A program made the translations under genes and the position numbers. The notes under the pieces were generated by a model. It had not been told where the DNA came from, made no database searches, and worked only from the letters and a program-made list of their open reading frames with translations. From an uncultured bacterium (lineage in GTDB: Bacteria > Babelota > Babeliae > Babelales > RVW-14), in NCBI GenBank assembly GCA_963759805.1, contig CAVXAT010000002.1, forward strand, positions 128,001 to 192,000: 64,000 nucleotides of DNA, given 5' to 3'. Position 1 is the first letter of the stretch, and every line of letters starts with the position of its first letter. Shown piece by piece: positions 4,805-63,406 of the stretch.

Positions 4805-6379
4805 ATGGTTACGTTTTTTAACAAAATTTATGGATGCCAAGCAAATTTTGCAGACTCACAAGGCCTTGCCAAATTTTTAATAGAACTGGGGTGCATACCT
4901 GTTGATTCCGAACGGAATGCCGATCTGATAATTATTAATACCTGCGCAATCCGCGAAAAGGCAGAACAGAAGCTTTATTCATACATTGGCAGACTGGCAG
5001 AATTAAAAAAAGATAAACCCCATCTGAAAATTGGTGTTATCGGTTGCGTAGCCAGCTACAAGAAAAAAGAGTTTTATGAATACTTTGAATGCATCAGTTT
5101 CGTCCATGGTGCACGCGAGGAAATCGCTGCACTGCAGGGATATTTGGCTGAATTAATCTCAAATATTCAAACAGCAAAGAATTTATTTATACAAAATCCG
5201 GATTCAAAAATAAAATATTTAAAACAGGATCGTAGGCTAAAAAAGATATTTGACAAAAGGGCCATTGGCTCAACCCGAATTAACACAGATCCAAGCAGTA
5301 TCAGCAGACTTAATTTAAACGAGCATATCAAAGATGAATCAAACAAAGACAGGCGACTTCTTCTGAAACCCGGCGCGTCACCAAGTGATGGTTCGACAAG
5401 CTCCCAGGCTTCGCCCTTCGTGGCTACGCCGGGCACGGCACCACGAGCGCGCCTGCATTCAGAACAAATATCTGATGTTCGAGCCATGATTAACATCATG
5501 ACCGGATGCAACAAATACTGCTCCTACTGCATCGTGCCATTCACCCGCGGACGCGAAATAAGCTATCCGATGGCCGACATTTTAAATGCCGTAAAAAAGG
5601 ATCTTGATCGTGGGGCAAAAGAGATCACATTAATTGGCCAAAATGTCAATTCTTACATTGATCCACAAACCGGCACTCGCTTCCCTGATCTTTTACAAAA
5701 AGTTGCATCAATTGAGGGGGATTTTTGGGTACGATTTGTAAGCCCACATCCACAAGATATGACAAAAGATCTGTTTCAAGTTATGGCAGACAACAGACCA
5801 AAACTTACTGCTTTTTTGCACTTTCCGCTGCAGTCCGGATCAGACACAATTCTAAAAGCCATGAACCGAAACTACACAGTGGCAGAATTTTTAGAAAAAA
5901 TAGGCTGGATTAAAGAGTTAATGCCGGATGCAGGGATAACTACAGATATAATCGTCGGATTTCCGGGAGAAACCGAGCAGGATTACTTGGCAACTCGGAA
6001 AGTAATGGAAATGGTAAAATTTGACCAAATTTACTCATTTATTTACTCCAAACGCAAATTTACCAAAGCTTATAACATGCCAGATGATTGTACCCAGGAG
6101 GAAAAGGCTCGACGTTTAAGCGAACTGCAAAGGCGCCAGCGAGAAATCTCTTTGGAACAAAACAGGGAAAAGATTGGCAAAACTTTGAAAGTTCTTATTG
6201 AAAAAGAGCTAGAGCCTGGTAAACTTTTAGCAAGAACAGAAGCAAACGCTCGGGTACTTATAACAGGTAAAAATGCGAGTTTAGTTGGCAGCTTTGTGAA
6301 CGTGAAAATTGAAAGTACTACGGTTGTTAACTTGTCAGGGGTTTGTCATCCTGAACTCGTTTCAGGATCCATGGATTAG
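4805..6379 (+). CDS. miaB: tRNA methylthiotransferase MiaB, with an in-frame palindromic insertion in the inter-domain linker
   Basis: YGCQAN, NTCAIREKAEQK, GCNKYCSYCIVPFTRGRE, DIIVGFPGETE, C-terminal TRAM domain. Confidence 0.93.
   Translation: MVTFFNKIYGCQANFADSQGLAKFLIELGCIPVDSERNADLIIINTCAIREKAEQKLYSYIGRLAELKKDKPHLKIGVIGCVASYKKKEFYEYFECISFVHGAREEIAALQGYLAELISNIQTAKNLFIQNPDSKIKYLKQDRRLKKIFDKRAIGSTRINTDPSSISRLNLNEHIKDESNKDRRLLLKPGASPSDGSTSSQASPFVATPGTAPRARLHSEQISDVRAMINIMTGCNKYCSYCIVPFTRGREISYPMADILNAVKKDLDRGAKEITLIGQNVNSYIDPQTGTRFPDLLQKVASIEGDFWVRFVSPHPQDMTKDLFQVMADNRPKLTAFLHFPLQSGSDTILKAMNRNYTVAEFLEKIGWIKELMPDAGITTDIIVGFPGETEQDYLATRKVMEMVKFDQIYSFIYSKRKFTKAYNMPDDCTQEEKARRLSELQRRQREISLEQNREKIGKTLKVLIEKELEPGKLLARTEANARVLITGKNASLVGSFVNVKIESTTVVNLSGVCHPELVSGSMD
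5372..5453 (-). repeat. composite palindromic element in miaB: A element carrying a nested 36-bp B element (5404..5439)
   Basis: GC-rich island bounded by ggcgcg/cgcgcc. Minus strand reads cgctcgtggt-[gccgtgcccggcgtagccacgaagggcgaagcctgg]-gagcttgtcgaaccat, matching the uvrC copy. Confidence 0.9.
6344..6370 (+). repeat. C-family REP-like palindrome (TGTCATCCTGAA-loop-TTCAGGATC) encoding the MiaB C-terminus
   Basis: tgtcatcctgaactcgtttcaggatcc; near-identical inverted copy at 25056..25081. Confidence 0.85.
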
Positions 6380-6410
6380 TAACCTCCCTAAACAGTTCTT
6401 TGAATTATAC

Positions 6411-6554: not shown

Positions 6555-6641
6555 GCCGGGGTGGCGAAATTGGTAGACGCAAGGGACTTAAAATCCCTCG
6601 GGTGTAATCCACCCATACCGGTTCGAGTCCGGTCCTCGGCA
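6555..6641 (+). tRNA. tRNA-Leu(TAA), CCA not encoded
   Basis: gccgggg/cctcggc acceptor stem, anticodon loop ctTAAaa, long variable arm, gttcgagtc. Confidence 0.95.
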
Positions 6642-6724
6642 CTCTCCTACGCTTTCGCCCTGTGGGCTCATAGCTACGAAGAGCAGGCCATCCTAAATTT
6701 ACGCGCTACACAGATGGCACGGCC
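6642..6724 (-). repeat. B-family palindrome abutting the tRNA-Leu 3' end (6642..6688), plus a degenerate second copy
   Basis: Minus strand gcctg-ctcttc-GTAG-ct...ag-CGTA-ggagag; second partial copy gccgtgcc...gtagc at about 6700..6724. Confidence 0.75.
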
Positions 6725-6731
6725 ACCCAAA

Positions 6732-12789: not shown

Positions 12790-14589
12790 ATGAAAGAGAT
12801 TGATAGTAAAAATCTAGAAACACAGATCAAAAATCTTCCCAGAAACTCTGGCGTTTATCTTTTTAAAGATTCTCAGGATCTTGTTTTGTATATTGGCAAA
12901 GCCAAAAACTTAAAAAGTCGCGTATCAAGTTATTTAAAAAGCGATGACATAAAATCCTACTCACTACGGCAAGAGAGTGAGCATCTAGATTTTATAGTAA
13001 CAAAAAATGAACTTGAAGCCATGCTTCTTGAAGCAAAATTAATTCAAACGCATCAACCGAAATTCAATGTACTTTTGAAAACTGGGCAGCCTTTTTTATG
13101 GATTCTAATAAGCCAAAATCTATCATCTGTCACATTACCTGAACTTAAGCTTGTACGTAATCAAAAACAGAAAGGCACATATTTCGGCCCATTTTTAGAA
13201 AAAAACTCGGCACGAAAGGTTTATGATTTCCTAATCAAGACATTCAGATTAAAACTGTGCAAAAAAAAGATTCCTAGCGGCTGCCTTGCGTACCACATGG
13301 GAATCTGTGCAGGAAAATGTAGACCTGATTTTGATAAAAACAGTTATCTGGAAAGAATCGAGCTTGCAAAGTTTGCACTAAAGAACAATCATGCCGAATT
13401 TTTAAAACATTTAAAAAGTTTAATCAAAGAACATAACAAAAAGATGGAATTTGAAAAGGCTCGTCAACTTCACAGTTATATGGCTGCATTTGAGAGAGTT
13501 TTTGATATTCTTGAAACTAAGCCAATAACAAAATTCAAACTCGATGAAAAAGATATCTGGTTTTTAACAGAAGACAAGTCTGCACTATTTTTATTTAAAG
13601 AGAAAAACAGTGTTCTTATAAAAAAAGAGGCTTTTTACTTTCCCAAAGAGTATCAATTGCCAGCCCAGTTTCTGGCTCCATTAGAACAAACCCTTCGACA
13701 GGCTCAGGGTGAGCGCAGAGAGCACCTTGAAGAACCCGCTCGTGGCGCCTGCCCGCCGAAGCTAAACCTAAGCGAAGGCTGGGAGCTTGTCGAACCATTT
13801 CAATGGGTTCTTAAGGCTCAGAAGAGGGCTCAGAAAAACTCTAATATCAAAGAATCTAGTTATCTAGATTTTTTTGAAAGTTACTATCGAACTTATCCCG
13901 CCCCATCAATCATTTTAGTTAATTTTGAAATTGATAATGCAACCCAAAAACTTTATCAAAAATTCATAAAATCTTGGCATAAGAAAAGTTATGACGTCTC
14001 AATAATAATGAAGCCCGAATCCGGCCACTTTGCCAATCTGATCAAGTTAGCAAAAATTCATGTAGATGCAGAAATATCAAAACAGGCCACAATTCCAAAA
14101 GCACTGAAAAGTCTACTAAAACTCCCAATTGAGCCCCACACTATTGATTGTTTTGATATTTCACATAAACAGGGCATGTACATGGTTGGATCATGTGTAC
14201 GTTTTGCCGATAACATCCCGGACAAAAAAAATTTTAGGCATTTTTATATAAAAAGCATAGAACAACAAAATGACTATGCCGCGTTGCATGAAATTGTTCA
14301 ACGCAGGTACAGAAATACAAACGAACTTCCCGATTTAATCTTAATTGATGGAGGCAAGGGGCAACTCAACGCCGTCCAGAAACTATTTCCACAGGCAGAA
14401 TTTGCAAGCTTGGCAAAAAAAGAAGAAACTGTTTTTTCTAAACGAATTCCTGAGGGTAAAAAACTGAATTTAAAAAGTTTTGTGGGACAAACATTAACCG
14501 CTCTTAGAGATTATGCACACCACTTTGCGATAAGTTTTCATCGCAAAGTGGAACACAAAAATTCATTTGATATTAACTCAATCGATTGA
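12790..14589 (+). CDS. uvrC: excinuclease ABC subunit C, with an in-frame palindromic insertion and no C-terminal HhH
   Basis: GIY-YIG (GVYLF..YIGKAKNLKSRVSSY), UVR helix (MEFEKA), RNase H-like IDCFDISH, PDLILIDGGKGQL, RDYAHHFAISFHR. Confidence 0.93.
   Translation: MKEIDSKNLETQIKNLPRNSGVYLFKDSQDLVLYIGKAKNLKSRVSSYLKSDDIKSYSLRQESEHLDFIVTKNELEAMLLEAKLIQTHQPKFNVLLKTGQPFLWILISQNLSSVTLPELKLVRNQKQKGTYFGPFLEKNSARKVYDFLIKTFRLKLCKKKIPSGCLAYHMGICAGKCRPDFDKNSYLERIELAKFALKNNHAEFLKHLKSLIKEHNKKMEFEKARQLHSYMAAFERVFDILETKPITKFKLDEKDIWFLTEDKSALFLFKEKNSVLIKKEAFYFPKEYQLPAQFLAPLEQTLRQAQGERREHLEEPARGACPPKLNLSEGWELVEPFQWVLKAQKRAQKNSNIKESSYLDFFESYYRTYPAPSIILVNFEIDNATQKLYQKFIKSWHKKSYDVSIIMKPESGHFANLIKLAKIHVDAEISKQATIPKALKSLLKLPIEPHTIDCFDISHKQGMYMVGSCVRFADNIPDKKNFRHFYIKSIEQQNDYAALHEIVQRRYRNTNELPDLILIDGGKGQLNAVQKLFPQAEFASLAKKEETVFSKRIPEGKKLNLKSFVGQTLTALRDYAHHFAISFHRKVEHKNSFDINSID
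13691..13798 (+). repeat. inverted A-element doublet in uvrC with a nested 36-bp B element (13747..13782)
   Basis: cccttcgacaggctcagggtgagcg-spacer-cccgctcgtggc-[gcctgcccgccgaagctaaacctaagcgaaggctgg]-gagcttgtcgaaccat; 108 bp, 36 codons. Confidence 0.9.
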
Positions 14590-18172: not shown

Positions 18173-18982
18173 TCAGCGACCATCAATTTCAAATTCTTTT
18201 TTCAAATAACTTTGTTCAATAGGGGTAAAGGCACACCATGCCAAAATCAATTGAACCGGATCACCATCTTTGTTCAAGTGAGGCAGATTTACAATATCAT
18301 AAAATTCATTCATTCTGTTTTGTTTTTTGAGATATTTAAGAATCAAAATTAATAGAACTTGATTAAAATCTGTAACATTACGACATATCATTAAAGGGAC
18401 AGCAGGTATTCCCGCCCAAGTGACCACATATTTGCCATCAGGACTCCATGCCCCCGATTTCCTCCGGCCGTTTGATGTTACTTCGTATAGATCAAATGAT
18501 GCCCCTTCAATAATATCTCCCTCGGGATTCAATGCTACCGAGCACATCGAATCTTTATACGATGCAAGCGTTCTGCATTCTCCTGTTTCTACATTCCATT
18601 CCCTTGCCGTTCCATCAGATAATACCCCTGCAATATATTCACCATCAGGACTCCATACTACTGAGCTCATCCGTCTTTCACTCTCAGCACCCAAGGTTTT
18701 GTGCAACACAAAAAAATCGGGTAATAAGCTCGCTGCCAAACCTTTTGGCACTTCAGGATCTTCACAATACTTTTCAAAAAAATTTAATTTTTCAAAAAAG
18801 TTTAACGTTTCGACATCCCCTGCAATCAATTTTTCTATAAAAGCGTCTGTTTTCACAATACTCGCAACACATGCAGTACAACTTTCCTGCAATTTTGGCA
18901 TAGCAACCAAAACTGTTTTTTGAGAGCAAGTGATCAAGGGTAAAATCAAAAATAATTTTGTTGTTTTAAATAAATTTTTCAT
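18173..18982 (-). CDS. secreted WD40-repeat protein, shorter paralogue
   Basis: WSPDG repeats; long near-identical DNA blocks shared with 18979..20037. Confidence 0.8.
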   Translation of the reverse strand: MKNLFKTTKLFLILPLITCSQKTVLVAMPKLQESCTACVASIVKTDAFIEKLIAGDVETLNFFEKLNFFEKYCEDPEVPKGLAASLLPDFFVLHKTLGAESERRMSSVVWSPDGEYIAGVLSDGTAREWNVETGECRTLASYKDSMCSVALNPEGDIIEGASFDLYEVTSNGRRKSGAWSPDGKYVVTWAGIPAVPLMICRNVTDFNQVLLILILKYLKKQNRMNEFYDIVNLPHLNKDGDPVQLILAWCAFTPIEQSYLKKEFEIDGR

Positions 18983-20037
18983 AAATTCTGGAGCACAACA
19001 CTTACCATCTGGGGCACATCAAAACCCTTACCATTAAATACTTCTAGTGAGTATCGAGTTATCGAGCCATCTTGAAAACACTGTTCAAGCTCAGGGTCAA
19101 TACCAAATCTTTCTTTCAGATAACGCTGTTCAATAGGAGTAAAGGCATACCATGCTAAAATCAACTGAATCTGATCGGCCTCTCTATTTAAGTGGGGCTC
19201 ATTTACAATTTTATAAAATTCATTCATTCGATTGTGTTTTTTAAGATATTGAAGAACTAAAAATAATAGAATTTGATTAAAATCTGCAACTTCACGCCAT
19301 ATCGTTAAAGGAGTACCGTCTCGCCAACTGACCAAATATTCGCCATCAGGACTCCATGCTCCCGATATCCCCTGATGTTTATTCCAGCCATTTGATCTTA
19401 CTTTGTATAGATCAAATAATGTGCTGTGAAGAGTTTTCCACTCATGACTAAATGATACCCAAATCGAATCTTTATACGATGCAAGCGTTCTGAATTCTCC
19501 TGTTTCTACATTCCATTCTCTTGCCGTTCCATCATATAATACCCCTGCAATACATTTACCATCAGGACTCCATGCTACTGACTTAACCCCACAACCATGC
19601 ACTGTAAACACTCTGCATTCTCTTGATGCTACATGCCATATGCTTACTATTCCATCAAATGAGGGAATTTTAAATGATGCACTGGCAATATATTTACCAT
19701 CAGGACTCCATGCTACTGATGACGTCCACGTTGCAACCTCTACAGCCAAGATTTTGTGTTGCACAAAGAAATCGGGTAATAAGCTCGCTGCCAAACCTTT
19801 TGGCGCTTCAGGATCTTCACAATACTTTTCAAAAAAATTTAATTTTTCAAAAAAGTTTAACGTTTCGACATCCCCTGAAATCAATTTTTCTATAAAAGCG
19901 TCTGTTTTCACAATACTCGCGATTCGCGCAGCGCAACTTTCCTGCAAAGTCAACATTCCAAATAAAATTGTTTTTTGAAAGCAAGCGATCAGGAATAAAA
20001 TTAAAAATAATTTTGTTGTTTTTACTAAATTGTTCAT
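18979..20037 (-). CDS. secreted WD40-repeat protein
   Basis: SVAWSPDGK.IA repeats; signal peptide from ATG 20037. Confidence 0.82.
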   Translation of the reverse strand: MNNLVKTTKLFLILFLIACFQKTILFGMLTLQESCAARIASIVKTDAFIEKLISGDVETLNFFEKLNFFEKYCEDPEAPKGLAASLLPDFFVQHKILAVEVATWTSSVAWSPDGKYIASASFKIPSFDGIVSIWHVASRECRVFTVHGCGVKSVAWSPDGKCIAGVLYDGTAREWNVETGEFRTLASYKDSIWVSFSHEWKTLHSTLFDLYKVRSNGWNKHQGISGAWSPDGEYLVSWRDGTPLTIWREVADFNQILLFLVLQYLKKHNRMNEFYKIVNEPHLNREADQIQLILAWYAFTPIEQRYLKERFGIDPELEQCFQDGSITRYSLEVFNGKGFDVPQMVSVVLQNL

Positions 20038-20184: not shown

Positions 20185-21330
20185 TTATCTTCCAAGCACC
20201 TCTTGCCATGTAGGCAAAACCATATCATCAATCATTATCTCATTGATCATGCGCAGCGGCAACTCCGACAATGATTGTGCCGGGGAGTTCTCGCCTAGGC
20301 GCGGATGTTGGACGAGGGCTAGCGTTAACATTTGACGTTTTTGAAGTTTTCTTTCTTGCGTAATTCTTTGTGCAGGCAAATTTGTCCATATTACTACTCT
20401 AACCTCAGATCCATTAAATCCATTCTGTGTAACAATCATGGCCGCTATTTGCATCCCATCTGGGCTAAATGCTATTTTGAATACGTAACCATCTCCATAT
20501 TTAAATGTATGAATGCAAGTCTTACTCTGCATATCCCACAACTCAATTTTTCCATCATTGTCTCTATTCTCACATGCGATAGCAAAAAGACTTCCATCCG
20601 AACTGAATGCTACTGCATTTGATGTTGCATAACAATGTCCCACCACGGGCCATAATTCAAACAGTGGAATACATGTGTCTTTACCCAAATCCAATAAACC
20701 AAGACCTTTTAAAAGGCGCGACTCACCTAAAAGGCACGGCCCACAATAAACCAAAATATTATCATACAAATTGAATGCTAACGCATCTACAGAACCACTG
20801 CATTTAATCGTATGTATACGTTCCATAGTCGTCAAATTCCATACACTAACTTCTCCAGAATCATCTCCGGAGGCCAAAATGTTACCGTCTGAGTTGAATG
20901 CTAACGCTTCTACACAGCCACTAACTTCAAATTTATGTATATTCTTGCCCAACTTCAGATTCCATAATGCAACTTCACGCTGACCTCCAGAGGCCAAAAT
21001 GTTACCATTGGGACTGATTGCCAATGCCCATGCTAAACAATCAATTTCAAGATCACGAGTGCAAATCCTAGACTGCATATTCCAAAATTTGAAATGATCA
21101 TACCGTTGCCCCCATTTCCATTTAAACTCATGAACCAAAAATTCTCCCCCATGACTGGTTGCCAACGCAGTCAAAGGCGCACCGCCTTTGTAGCAACCTA
21201 TATTAACTAAAGTCTCATCTATTACACTCTCATCTATGCCTGGTGCTGCAGCCGCCGCCGACAAATTAGCTGCATAAAATAAAACATGTGCAAACAGTAT
21301 TGTTTTAATGCAATTTTTGATATTCTCCAC
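20185..21330 (-). CDS. secreted WD40-repeat protein with C-terminal HPRLG motif
   Basis: ALAFNSDGNILASG...VWN repeats; signal peptide paralogous to the next gene. Confidence 0.85.
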   Translation of the reverse strand: MENIKNCIKTILFAHVLFYAANLSAAAAAPGIDESVIDETLVNIGCYKGGAPLTALATSHGGEFLVHEFKWKWGQRYDHFKFWNMQSRICTRDLEIDCLAWALAISPNGNILASGGQREVALWNLKLGKNIHKFEVSGCVEALAFNSDGNILASGDDSGEVSVWNLTTMERIHTIKCSGSVDALAFNLYDNILVYCGPCLLGESRLLKGLGLLDLGKDTCIPLFELWPVVGHCYATSNAVAFSSDGSLFAIACENRDNDGKIELWDMQSKTCIHTFKYGDGYVFKIAFSPDGMQIAAMIVTQNGFNGSEVRVVIWTNLPAQRITQERKLQKRQMLTLALVQHPRLGENSPAQSLSELPLRMINEIMIDDMVLPTWQEVLGR

Positions 21331-22150
21331 TGCCTTGCCCCTTCTTCCAAATGGTTATATTTCCATCAGAACATCCGGCCGCTACTTGCATACCATCTTG
21401 ATTTAACGCCACTGCAGTTACCCACCTAGAACCACATTTGAACACATTTATGCATGCCCTTGCCTTCAGATCCCATAACTCAACTTTTCCTAATTGATCT
21501 ACAAAAGCCAAAAAGTTACCATCTGAGGTGAACGCTGCTGCTTGATCGGAAGGGTATACTGTTTGACTCACTTCCAACACAGAATTACATGTATTTGCCT
21601 TCAAATCTAACAGCTTAACAGCTCGGGCACTCACACAAAAAGCTAAAATGTTGCCATCTGGGTTGAACGCTAATGCGCATACCCAATCTTTACACTCAAA
21701 CTTATGAATAAGTGTGTCTGTATTCAGATTCCATACCTCAACATTTCCGCCTTCCCCAATGGCCAAAGTTTTACCATCCGGACTGAAAGCTACTGAGAAT
21801 ACATAATTTTTGCAGGGAAAAGTAAATATATTTTTTTTCTCGTTTAAATCGACCAAATCAACCTTGCCATTAGATCCCACAGCCAAACCGCCACCTCCCG
21901 GACTAAATGCTAGCGCACGTGCAGAACCAACATATCCAAAATCACAAAAACGTCCATCCGACAAAAATTTCCATAATAGAGCATTCTCATCATGGGCAAA
22001 AGCCAAATCTTTCTCATTCGGACTAAAGGCTAATGCATGGACTGTCGCCTCCCCATACACCGGATCAGCGCAGGCAGCATTGAGATTAGCAGGCCCAAAC
22101 AGAACAAATAAAAACAACCCAGTTTTAATAAAGTTTTTGATACTCTTCAT
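21305..22150 (-). CDS. secreted WD40-repeat protein
   Basis: About seven ALAFSP(D)G..LA...V.(L/V)W(D/N) repeats. Confidence 0.85.
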   Translation of the reverse strand: MKSIKNFIKTGLFLFVLFGPANLNAACADPVYGEATVHALAFSPNEKDLAFAHDENALLWKFLSDGRFCDFGYVGSARALAFSPGGGGLAVGSNGKVDLVDLNEKKNIFTFPCKNYVFSVAFSPDGKTLAIGEGGNVEVWNLNTDTLIHKFECKDWVCALAFNPDGNILAFCVSARAVKLLDLKANTCNSVLEVSQTVYPSDQAAAFTSDGNFLAFVDQLGKVELWDLKARACINVFKCGSRWVTAVALNQDGMQVAAGCSDGNITIWKKGQGSGEYQKLH

Positions 22151-25024: not shown

Positions 25025-25055
25025 GTTATTTTTAAAGGAAGTTTATTAATTGATA

Positions 25056-25081
25056 GATCCTGAATCAAGTTCAGGATGACA
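25056..25081 (-). repeat. C-family REP-like palindrome, 16 bp upstream of cysS
   Basis: Minus strand tgtcatcctgaacttgattcaggatc, 2 mismatches to 6344..6369. Confidence 0.85.
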
Positions 25082-25097
25082 AAAAGCAACACCAATC

Positions 25098-32581: not shown

Positions 32582-33835
32582 CTATTTTACCCGTCTTTGT
32601 TTAGCTGATAACTTTCTATGCTTAACTGAAGCCTTTTCATACCCCTGCTCAATTTTACCCAGCAATGTTTTTAGCTCTGTTTTATATTTCTTCAAATTTG
32701 GAGTTTCGTTACAATATTTAAAGATTTTCACACCACTTTTAGGATCAAGCATTTTTTTATTCATCAGAAGCCTAAATTGCATAGTATCCAACACATTCCC
32801 GGATAAATCACTGTCAAAAGAGTCACAATCCTTGTACGCCTCCAAATCTTTTGATGCTGGATTGTATGATATACCGCCAAATATTTTATTGAGGAGTGAT
32901 TTACCACATGGGCCATATACAAAGCCTCCAGGGGCACACCGATATGCAACCTCATCAACTAATTTTTGGGGAACAAAAATTTGAAGCAAAAGACCCGTTT
33001 TTTCCTTTTCATAATCACCAAGCAGATTATTAAGTTCCTTAATCAATTCTCGATATTGATCGAAATATTTATTCATCTTGAAAGCCTGAAACGCCTGACT
33101 CACTAAATCACACACATCCACCTCTGTTACATTGCTTGAATTAATAAAATAACAAAAGGAGCATTCCCCTCCCCAATCCAAAGCCGTATTACCAAACAAT
33201 GTTGAATTTACCGAAAGTAAATATTTTTTGACATGAGGCTGTGTGTCAAACCATACCAAATGGTTTGTTAGCTCGCCATTGTCCATATATTGCTTTATAA
33301 AGTTTTCAACCGACCCAAATTTACTAAAATCTTTATCCGGAAACCTAAGCATCACAAAATCATGTAAAATTTTTTTATAAGCAATTTTATAAAGCCCTTG
33401 ATAAATATCCTGAGGCAATGTAAATTCACGCTTTTGGCCATGATAAAAAACATAATAATCATCTTTAAATTCAATTTCCTTTTCAATGATTTCTCTGAAT
33501 AATTCCTTAAAAAAATTGGAGCCTAATTCATTTACTCTTTTGCTAAAATGCCAATTCAGATTTTCATAAAGGGTATGATTGGAAAGATATGCCAACGTCT
33601 GGGTCTGCTTTGGCTTATCAATGCTATTTTTTAAGCCCAATTTTTGATAAGCATCGTCAATTATATTCGTGACATTCAAGTCTTGGCCCGGACAATATGC
33701 AGCAAAAAGCGATGCCTGAAGAGACAATACATTCAAGTCTTGGCCCGGACAATATGCAGCAAAAAGCGATGCCTGAAGAGACAATAATATTAATGCTATA
33801 AATAAGAATCTATTTTTTAGATTTACAACCACCAT
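32582..33835 (-). CDS. secreted hypothetical protein with a 19-aa N-terminal duplication
   Basis: Long ORF with signal peptide; LSLQASLFAAYCPGQDLNV occurs twice. Confidence 0.7.
   Translation of the reverse strand: MVVVNLKNRFLFIALILLSLQASLFAAYCPGQDLNVLSLQASLFAAYCPGQDLNVTNIIDDAYQKLGLKNSIDKPKQTQTLAYLSNHTLYENLNWHFSKRVNELGSNFFKELFREIIEKEIEFKDDYYVFYHGQKREFTLPQDIYQGLYKIAYKKILHDFVMLRFPDKDFSKFGSVENFIKQYMDNGELTNHLVWFDTQPHVKKYLLSVNSTLFGNTALDWGGECSFCYFINSSNVTEVDVCDLVSQAFQAFKMNKYFDQYRELIKELNNLLGDYEKEKTGLLLQIFVPQKLVDEVAYRCAPGGFVYGPCGKSLLNKIFGGISYNPASKDLEAYKDCDSFDSDLSGNVLDTMQFRLLMNKKMLDPKSGVKIFKYCNETPNLKKYKTELKTLLGKIEQGYEKASVKHRKLSAKQRRVK
33672..33786. repeat. exact 57-bp tandem duplication
   Basis: 33672..33728 is identical to 33729..33785. 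Confidence 0.95.
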
Positions 33836-34046
33836 TTTAACCCCCATCTAAAACAATAATTTACCAACCCTACAATTTACAAACCTCCGGATACCATATA
33901 TCTAATCTATAGATTTTATAGTAGGTTTCAAACGGTAGGGGGGTAAGTGGGGGAATATGGGGCGTCAGGTCCAAGATTATTACAAATGAGAAATATTGCG
34001 TGCAAGCAATGCTTTAATCGTAAAAAACAGAATTAAAATTCATTAT

Positions 34047-63240: not shown

Positions 63241-63332
63241 GGAGAGATGGCTGAGTGGTTGAAAGCGACCGCCTCGAAAGCGGTTATTCCGGGAAACTGG
63301 AATCGTGGGTTCGAATCCCACTCTCTCCACCA
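63241..63332 (+). tRNA. tRNA-Ser(CGA)
   Basis: ggagaga/tctctcc acceptor stem, anticodon loop ctCGAaa, long variable arm, gttcgaatc, CCA. Confidence 0.96.
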
Positions 63333-63387
63333 GTCTTCGCTGCTTCGCAGCTTCGTCTGGCAGGAAAGCAGCTTCGTCTGGCAAGCC
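63330..63387 (-). repeat. B-family palindrome overlapping the tRNA-Ser CCA (63330..63364), plus a duplicated half copy
   Basis: Minus strand cctg-ccagac-GAAG-ctgcgaagcag-CGAA-gactgg; gcagcttcgtctggca is repeated 21 bp later. Confidence 0.8.
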
Positions 63388-63406
63388 ATCCAATTTAGGC
63401 TAGTTA

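Follow-up and report, generated by a model that had tools for sequence, protein, structure and literature searches.

Peel-and-paste elements of the IS200/IS605 type insert without target duplication, carry hairpin ends that fold as single-stranded DNA and use one active strand. Islands with tyrosine integrases insert at the 3′ ends of tRNA genes and restore the end. In the Ssn/NTS/SRM system (SsnA, cd10448), a single-domain GIY-YIG gene is tied to its own oriented hairpin repeat, which has a short unpaired tag and is dispersed in many copies; according to the main text of PMC11893778, SsnA binds and cuts this hairpin as single-stranded DNA but not as RNA, and it acts on just one of the two strands. 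The GTAG REP, REPIN and BIME repeats associated with RAYT are described in the text of PMC3733652 as tagged stem-loops of 20–50 bp with covarying stems, which occur as singles, inverted pairs and clusters, some of them within genes. SegB of T-even phages, a free-standing GIY-YIG homing enzyme located near tRNAs, cuts tRNA-containing DNA on both strands and is linked to the segmental duplication of tRNA loci, with no hairpin partner described in the available text of PMC13096335. Minimal stand-alone prokaryotic GIY-YIG proteins fall in the Slx1 cluster, where their function is given as untested in the available part of PMC1564403.

The locus considered here lies in a window of 64,000 nucleotides, the whole stretch of DNA that was analysed (G000:C2:128001-192000), in a bacterial genome (G000) of 1.50 Mb in 21 contigs. 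It carries a short hairpin element, hereafter B, at the ends of tRNA genes. The features are given in Table 1.

Table 1. Coordinates of tRNA genes and associated B elements in the window.
Feature	Position	Strand	Basis
tRNA-Cys(gca), empty site, CCA encoded; filled in relatives L018 and L029	6411..6484	+	
tRNA-Leu(taa) gene to discriminator base, no encoded CCA	6555..6641	+	ARAGORN, Rfam
B element, tRNA-proximal copy (46 bases)	6642..6687	-	sequence; boundaries from empty and filled orthologues
Displaced CCA, where the second copy also begins	6688..6690	+	orthologue comparison
Decayed second B copy, CCATC ... TACG cg CTAC ... GATGG CACGG	6688..6722	-	read by eye
Third arm stub or old trailer, CCACCC	6723..6728	+	read by eye
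tRNA-Ser(cga) to discriminator	63241..63329	+	ARAGORN, Rfam
B element, arm CCAGTC supplying the tRNA CCA	63330..63364	-	sequence; minus-strand DNA fold z -2.65
3′ half of B repeated in tandem, followed by CCATCC	63365..63391	+	sequence

At the Leu site, B begins directly after the discriminator base A6641, that is, at discriminator +1. On the sense strand, the arm CTCTCC (6642–6647) is followed by TACG (6648–6651), an inner stem-loop (6652–6673), CTAC (6674–6677), the second arm GAAGAG (6678–6683) and CAGG (6684–6687), after which CCATCC begins. The predicted fold of the minus strand consists of a tag CCTG, a 6-bp arm, a GTA/GTA internal loop and the inner stem, where five of the six arm positions pair and the C.A mismatch of the sense strand becomes a G.T wobble. 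The start of B, its reverse-complement architecture with pairing arms and the presence of a decayed second copy, recognised by eye, thus agree with the preliminary description of this DNA. The same description had placed B in place of the CCA, which holds in part: B occupies the +1 position, but the CCA was displaced 46 bp downstream and not lost. The CCA is encoded in 28 of 30 Leu(taa) orthologues, and the remaining two (G000 and G001) read CTC. In the related genome G003, a different B is found in the identical site, followed by the same CAGG-CCATCCTAA as in G000.

The register and orientation are the same at tRNA-Ser(cga), as had been reported, although the arm there starts with the tRNA's own CCA. 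A structure-aware census of G000 gave 84 copies of B, compared with none in each of three Markov controls. By strict calling, B was located exactly at +1 behind 14 of the 42 tRNA genes, where 0.001 would be expected by chance, so that tRNA ends hold just 14 of the 84 copies in this count; relaxed calling raised the number of genes with B in register to 18. Four more copies lie on the same strand near tRNA genes at +15, +24, +34 and +96, and at Ala-cgc and Gln-ctg B starts 3–4 bases too soon (by eye), as would follow if a repeated CCA or CCAG were lost by slippage. Other copies are found in the loops of two unrelated hairpin repeats and within B itself. Three Leu genes of G000 have a common rare arm, CTCTCC/GAAGAG.

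The range of this register was determined with a search pattern in which the T-arm is joined to B and arm positions 2–5 are left free. Across the phylum, 282 in-register matches were obtained in 98 of 201 genomes, and the reversed control gave none. When the pattern was shifted by 1–20 bases (20 offsets), 14 matches in 12 genomes were obtained; inspected by eye, ten of these re-read in-register elements and four were truly offset, at -3, +2, +9 and +12. The suggestion that tRNA 3′ ends are a preferred target of B is therefore upheld by the exact register at a fixed spacing from the discriminator, and it was even understated, since the tRNA end is also the home site of the cognate nuclease cassette described below.

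The element extends well beyond this phylum. At least 120 loci were found in 2 of the 64 parts of GTDB, from which approximately 4,700 stretches are estimated across GTDB, and the record titles include Alphaproteobacteria, Acidobacteriota, Verrucomicrobia, Planctomycetota, Nitrospirae, several CPR groups and Dependentiae. Among the 122 GTDB matches listed, 106 are at a tRNA end identified by ARAGORN and two (L093 and L103) are at the ends of tmRNA; CCA-starting arms dominate, and the arms covary, with position 4 paired in 111 matches and all four Watson-Crick types in use. Three evident chance matches (L060, L100 and L129) were removed to leave 119 listed loci, in which the base after CARG, left unspecified in the pattern, is C in 117, CCA follows in 90, and position 4 of the following sequence repeats arm 1 in 70, compared with 31 expected. 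In viral contigs the combination of tRNA and B is rare, with six matches, four of which appear tRNA-like by eye. The Rfam 15 covariance models gave nothing specific to B or to the cassette leader, either in the window at the gathering threshold or in 15 loci at E≤1, and for the name "COG2827 RNA motif" there was no Rfam match and no paper in the literature search. A search of sequencing runs listed no RNA run and gave small shares only.

The mobility of B can be seen from the comparison of 42 orthologous tRNAs in G000, G002 and G003, where automatic calling, which misses some decayed copies, found 19 tRNAs without B in any of the genomes, 15 with it in one or two and eight with it in all three. 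None of the eight has an identical arm in all three genomes. For G001 the comparison took in 8 of 31 tRNAs. At Phe(gaa), G000 and G002 are empty, and in G003 B lies between the discriminator and the unchanged original trailer, which is intact behind CAGG. At Lys(ctt), G002 is empty, and G000 and G003 each have two stacked copies ahead of the original trailer. These pairs fix the boundaries of B, from the start of arm 1 to CARG. Because clean empty sites are found together with sites filled by different arms in sister genomes, B is a mobile DNA element, and its hairpins come and go at tRNA ends across many bacterial phyla.

The arm does not as a rule copy its target. By eye, arm 1 agrees with the empty trailer of Phe, Asp, Tyr and Val(tac) but not with that of Val(cac), Glu(ctc) or Ala(tgc), and it is also unlike the target at the T-arm and D-stem sites described below. 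The idea that arm 1 is generally copied from the target was therefore rejected.

The encoded CCA is missing from 14 of 42 tRNA genes in G000, whereas G002 lacks it at 2 of 43 and G003 at 3 of 43. CTC is read in its place in eight of the 14; B is present at four of these, and the four B-free ones would be scars of lost copies. The insertion point of the CTC-arm copies is before the CCA. A nucleotidyltransferase resembling the CCA-adding enzyme is present in G000, though it falls under every curated cut-off, and no RNase Z was found above the cut-off in this genome, which is 89% complete, despite the 14 genes with no encoded CCA.

B is also found inside tRNA genes. A D-stem pattern (TAGCT|CAG) gave 13 matches in 11 of the 201 genomes, every one of which interrupts the 5′ sequence of a tRNA, and in 12 of them an intact copy of the same tRNA lies 23–384 nt downstream. 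The Met cases of G000 and G003 are probably a single event. Eight of the B cases have a spacing of 20–50 nt; B-free duplications with this spacing gave seven matches, at most one of which touches a tRNA. A T-arm pattern on the opposite strand (GG|TTCGA) gave nine matches, of which two are artefacts of ordinary 3′ copies. Two G000 loci, one with threefold amplification, account for four, and the last three come from other genomes, where an intact tRNA copy is close by in two cases. Removal of B from the D-stem and T-arm sites gives back the exact tRNA sequence, except at L373, where six extra bases remain, and there is no target-site duplication, as is the case for elements of the IS200/IS605 type. 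From these internal insertions, the 3′ register looks like the result of target preference plus survival.

Two of the internal sites have features of their own. At L379 (G160:C1:209253-209291), B lies in a tRNA-Ala gene that looks complete, and within 400 nt there is no intact copy. At L363 (G000:C14:13100-13650), three 149-bp tandem units each comprise the 3′ part of tRNA-Arg(tct) with one B in the T-arm and another at the CCA.

The empty and filled sites bear on the possibility that B is spread mainly by homology-driven conversion or DNA uptake, where the tRNA gene serves as a homology arm and a nuclease merely stimulates recombination, as in the homing of SegB described in the available text of PMC13096335. 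The rare arm common to the three Leu genes, the tendency of arms within a genome toward uniformity and the excess with which position 4 after CARG repeats arm 1 are all in keeping with such a process, and SegB itself offers the precedent of a GIY-YIG enzyme acting at tRNAs. However, precise insertions are found in the D-stem, in the T-arm, in the GNA loops of other repeats and in B itself, with no homology to the arms and no co-converted flank, and the flanks at Phe(gaa) are unchanged on both sides. Conversion as the main route is therefore rather unlikely, although the common CTCTCC arm suggests that conversion among tRNA genes also contributes to the spread of B.

The second component of the system is a nuclease gene. 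G000 has six PF01541 matches, of which two follow tRNA-Ser(tga) with B and tRNA-Asp with B on the same strand, one being frameshifted and the other ending at a contig end. Three more are bracketed by two different repeat families (by eye), and the remaining one is a 606-aa frame in the window. Related 80-aa ORFs were detected by a crude motif search behind 14 of the 122 GTDB matches listed, where 40 of 120 loci had approximately 300 nt or less downstream, which limits the search for the nuclease ORF. The B-linked ORFs are single-domain proteins of 80 aa with PF01541 only, or nearly so, comparable to the stand-alone Ssn proteins of about 90 aa. NCBIfam has no family for the B-linked nuclease fragments. 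The PDB sequence matches are UPF0213 proteins and Slx1, and the structure model, with a pLDDT of 92, has HIGLE and Slx1 as its best fold matches.

Further GIY-YIG genes and repeats were observed in G000. A copy of B on the minus strand (13748-13782) is nested in an A-type repeat inside the long GIY-YIG-bearing gene of the window (599-aa ORF 12790-14589). A second repeat family, TGTCATCCTGAA...TTCAGGATC, lies at 6342-6389 and 25036-25083 of the window, overlapping the 3′ end of miaB, and also brackets its own stand-alone GIY-YIG gene (G000:C1:132943) in an Ssn-like arrangement. A third type of stand-alone GIY-YIG gene (G000:C1:266306 and C9:54564) is bracketed by inverted copies of another family, so that the genome contains three repeat families, each paired with its own small nuclease. 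An IS200-type element lies directly behind the tRNA-Tyr B array (G000:C4:113300-113950) and has an identical twin on C11. The window also contains large imperfect direct repeats between adjacent ORFs at 18183-19973 and 20751-21830 (families D1–D8), which are probably paralogous repeat proteins, and an exact 57-bp tandem duplication (33672-33785) within ORF 32582-33847.

A profile (A1), built from genes selected behind tRNA and B and hence biased toward that context, found the nuclease family in 123 of the 201 phylum genomes. A tRNA lies within 600 nt upstream in 20 of the best 30 phylum nuclease genes, an adjacency of the SegB type, and in 36 of 64 usable metagenome loci (80 found with a single-protein query). 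A common leader is present in 74 of the 96 nuclease genes having at least 300 nt upstream. In this leader, tRNA and B come first, followed by an AT-rich spacer, the ten-mer GCGWA-GNNTG, another B of opposite orientation and finally the ATG. In 67 of the 74 leaders the distal ten-mer and arm 1 are reverse complements of each other, where shuffling gave a mean of 19 and a maximum of 33. A tRNA end, in most cases that of Glu(ttc) or Asp, marks the start of 43 of these leaders, and in 30 of the other 31 a G precedes the CCA. B-like sequence in the 120 nt past the stop was seen by eye in about 2–3 of 30 loci, so that the flank is one-sided. The second B of the Asp cassette in G000 has the arm CTCTTC/GAAGAG and is a plausible source of the CTC arms at the Leu genes.

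Cassettes away from tRNAs (L253, L259, L262, L273, L282, L287, L296, L321, L322 and others) have a recurring upstream stub, GTTC/GTTAAGG-N16-18-GGGACG, which resembles the end of tRNA-Glu with an attachment site. The cassette may have been moved away by islands integrating at the tRNA; one of 20 ORFs upstream of the displaced cassettes is an integrase, and the cassette itself carries the nuclease alone.

The nuclease is carried by 84 of the 98 genomes with tRNA-linked B, compared with 39 of the 103 without it (odds ratio 9.8, with kin genomes treated as independent, as in all these ratios). Since each cassette carries one B, this co-occurrence is partly circular. In genomes with at least three copies, the odds ratios are 3.7 for the nuclease and 2.1 for Y1 transposases, both nominally significant, and 7 of 40 such genomes have no nuclease match.

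The same counts bear on the alternative that B is moved in trans by an HUH (Y1) transposase, either an IS200 TnpA or a RAYT, with the GIY-YIG protein as a passenger or as a cutter of incoming DNA like SsnA of Neisseria. Insertion without duplication, a hairpin of single-stranded DNA and a 4-nt tag would suit peel-and-paste transposition, an analogy also drawn in the discussion of PMC11893778, and in addition to the weak enrichment in genomes with at least three copies, G000 has five Y1 matches, one of them just behind the tRNA-Tyr B array. However, 62 of the 98 B-positive genomes have no Y1 match at E≤1e-10, and overall Y1 genes do not track B (odds ratio 1.3, p 0.37). All five G000 proteins fall under the RAYT cut-off (NF047646), four of them passing that for IS200, and the copy next to tRNA-Tyr has its identical twin elsewhere with no B alongside. 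Movement by a Y1 enzyme is thus very unlikely, and RAYT or IS200 as the main mover was rejected.

The strand on which B folds was examined from its loops. Among 53 terminal loops of 3–4 nt, 35 are of the G..A type when read on the strand opposite the tRNA, whereas the sense strand gives no such loop, and all 22 of the two-base loops begin with T on the antisense strand. The 3x3 internal loop reads GWA/GWA on the antisense strand, which would permit sheared G.A pairs. The G.T wobbles number 11 antisense and 6 sense in the outer arms, and 3 and 5, respectively, in the inner stems. The sense fold of 6642–6724 is no better than shuffles (z 0.45); in the nearest-neighbour DNA fold, the Leu copy likewise fails to stand out from shuffles, with z -0.19 and -0.35 for the two strands, and the Ser(cga) copy favours the minus strand (z -2.65 vs -1.45). 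In DNA, GNA triloops alone form a very stable mini-hairpin, the RNA counterpart of which melts far lower, as reported in the available text of PMC13037366. The loop polarity of 35 to 0 argues for a fold of the template strand rather than a pre-tRNA trailer, and B therefore likely folds as single-stranded DNA on the template strand of the tRNA gene and not in RNA. That B is instead kept as an RNA trailer which pairs with the CCA end and steers pre-tRNA 3′ processing or termination, or the expression of a downstream gene, which widens the second reading of the preliminary description (a tRNA trailer or processing structure), is highly improbable: arm 1 starts at +1 and usually contains CCA, B also stands behind tmRNA, the distal ten-mer of the leader could pair with arm 1 in a transcript, and RNase Z was not detected above the cut-off, but B is absent from 24 of the 42 tRNAs in G000, is patchy in presence with rapid turnover between sister genomes, has antisense-polarised loops, an unremarkable sense fold and no U-tract, and also interrupts tRNA genes, lies in dead tRNA fragments and turns up within protein genes.

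Set against the known systems, the best reading is that the B cassette is akin to Ssn/NTS and REP/RAYT and probably a member of neither. B shares with Ssn the single-domain GIY-YIG gene tied to its own oriented, tagged and widely dispersed hairpin. Unlike Ssn, in which the repeats have an HGTCWY-type motif and lie on both sides of the gene (main text of PMC11893778), B is tagged with CYTG, contains an internal loop of the type GWA/GWA, lacks an HGTCWY start by eye, and lies in a leader upstream of the gene. B is anchored at tRNA and tmRNA ends, whereas the word "tRNA" has 0 occurrences in the main text of that paper. The modelled B nuclease has Slx1 and HIGLE as its best fold matches. The published degenerate SRM motif gave no match to B, nor to the NTS-like repeats flanking L003, intended as the positive control. 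The tagged stem-loops of 20–50 bp with covarying stems, their occurrence as singles, inverted pairs and clusters and their presence within some genes link B to the REP repeats of PMC3733652. However, the GTAG or GAAG of B is internal, with its last G paired, and closes the inner stem, the terminal tag being CCTG or CTTG; there is no RAYT in G000, and tRNA sites are unreported for REP in the text of PMC3733652. Overlap of B with one of the 24 GTAG families of that paper is possible.

By analogy, B resembles IS200/IS605 elements in the lack of target duplication, the predicted hairpin of single-stranded DNA and the one active strand, but an HUH transposase is lacking in cis, and B does not follow the distribution of Y1 genes. 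Like tRNA-targeted integrative elements, B inserts at the tRNA 3′ end and restores the end; it differs in that there is no integrase and no duplicated att core, the unit is 30–50 bp and its own arm restores just 3–4 bases. The proximity of a GIY-YIG gene to tRNA genes is shared with SegB (available text of PMC13096335), whereas the B nuclease is a bare 80-aa domain with a hairpin partner, and tRNA-linked B is rare in viral contigs (6 stretches). In the literature searched, mostly open-access main text, no description of this hairpin at tRNA ends was found.

Taken together, B is probably the non-autonomous hairpin of a tRNA-anchored, Slx1-like GIY-YIG nuclease cassette, inserted without target duplication between the discriminator and the CCA. 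In the mechanism that we infer, B would fold on the template strand as single-stranded DNA, with GNA mini-hairpin loops and the G.A-rich 3x3 internal loop, and the 80-residue nuclease would recognise folded single-stranded DNA, with nicks predicted at the foot of B and at junctions in the tRNA gene. The folded tRNA gene would offer at least three cut sites, namely TAGCT|CAG in the D-stem, GG|TTCGA in the T-arm and discriminator|CCA, and host repair is predicted to paste in the copy and complete the insertion. Insertions in the D-stem and T-arm would break the gene and survive mostly alongside a rescuing duplication. Insertion before the CCA would be tolerated since most arms start with CCA or, for a CTC arm as at Leu, since a CCA-adding enzyme completes the tRNA, and copies would stack because every insertion makes a new |CCA target. 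Against the nuclease-cassette reading, GIY-YIG nucleases are not known to join strands, whereas HUH enzymes are the ones that typically insert precisely and without duplication. The partly circular co-occurrence, the frameshifted or contig-end state of the two tRNA-linked genes in G000, the unremarkable DNA fold of the Leu copy and the small share of G000 copies at tRNA ends weigh on the same side.

A stronger and more tentative proposal, which we regard as possible but doubtful, is that B represents mobile DNA free of transposase and integrase, where the Slx1-like nuclease would read the single-stranded tRNA cloverleaf as a branched substrate and insert the hairpin of 30–50 nt at three fixed positions, building polarised arrays at the CCA end, duplicating tRNA fragments and eroding the encoded CCA. 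The inserted hairpin might then be a closed dumbbell with the CYTG tag as its junction loop.

If the nuclease-cassette reading is correct, the stand-alone GIY-YIG proteins of bacteria, a widespread and uncharacterised clade, would gain a function and a substrate that can be tested, and a compact structure-specific nuclease for single-stranded DNA with a defined hairpin would be a potential tool. The reading would explain, for one family, how REP-like repeats spread without a RAYT, a question left open in the text of PMC3733652. The picture obtained from Ssn and REP would be extended to tRNA and tmRNA genes as the homing sites of a system found in many phyla, and B would be a possible cause of the duplication of tRNA fragments and the loss of the encoded CCA.
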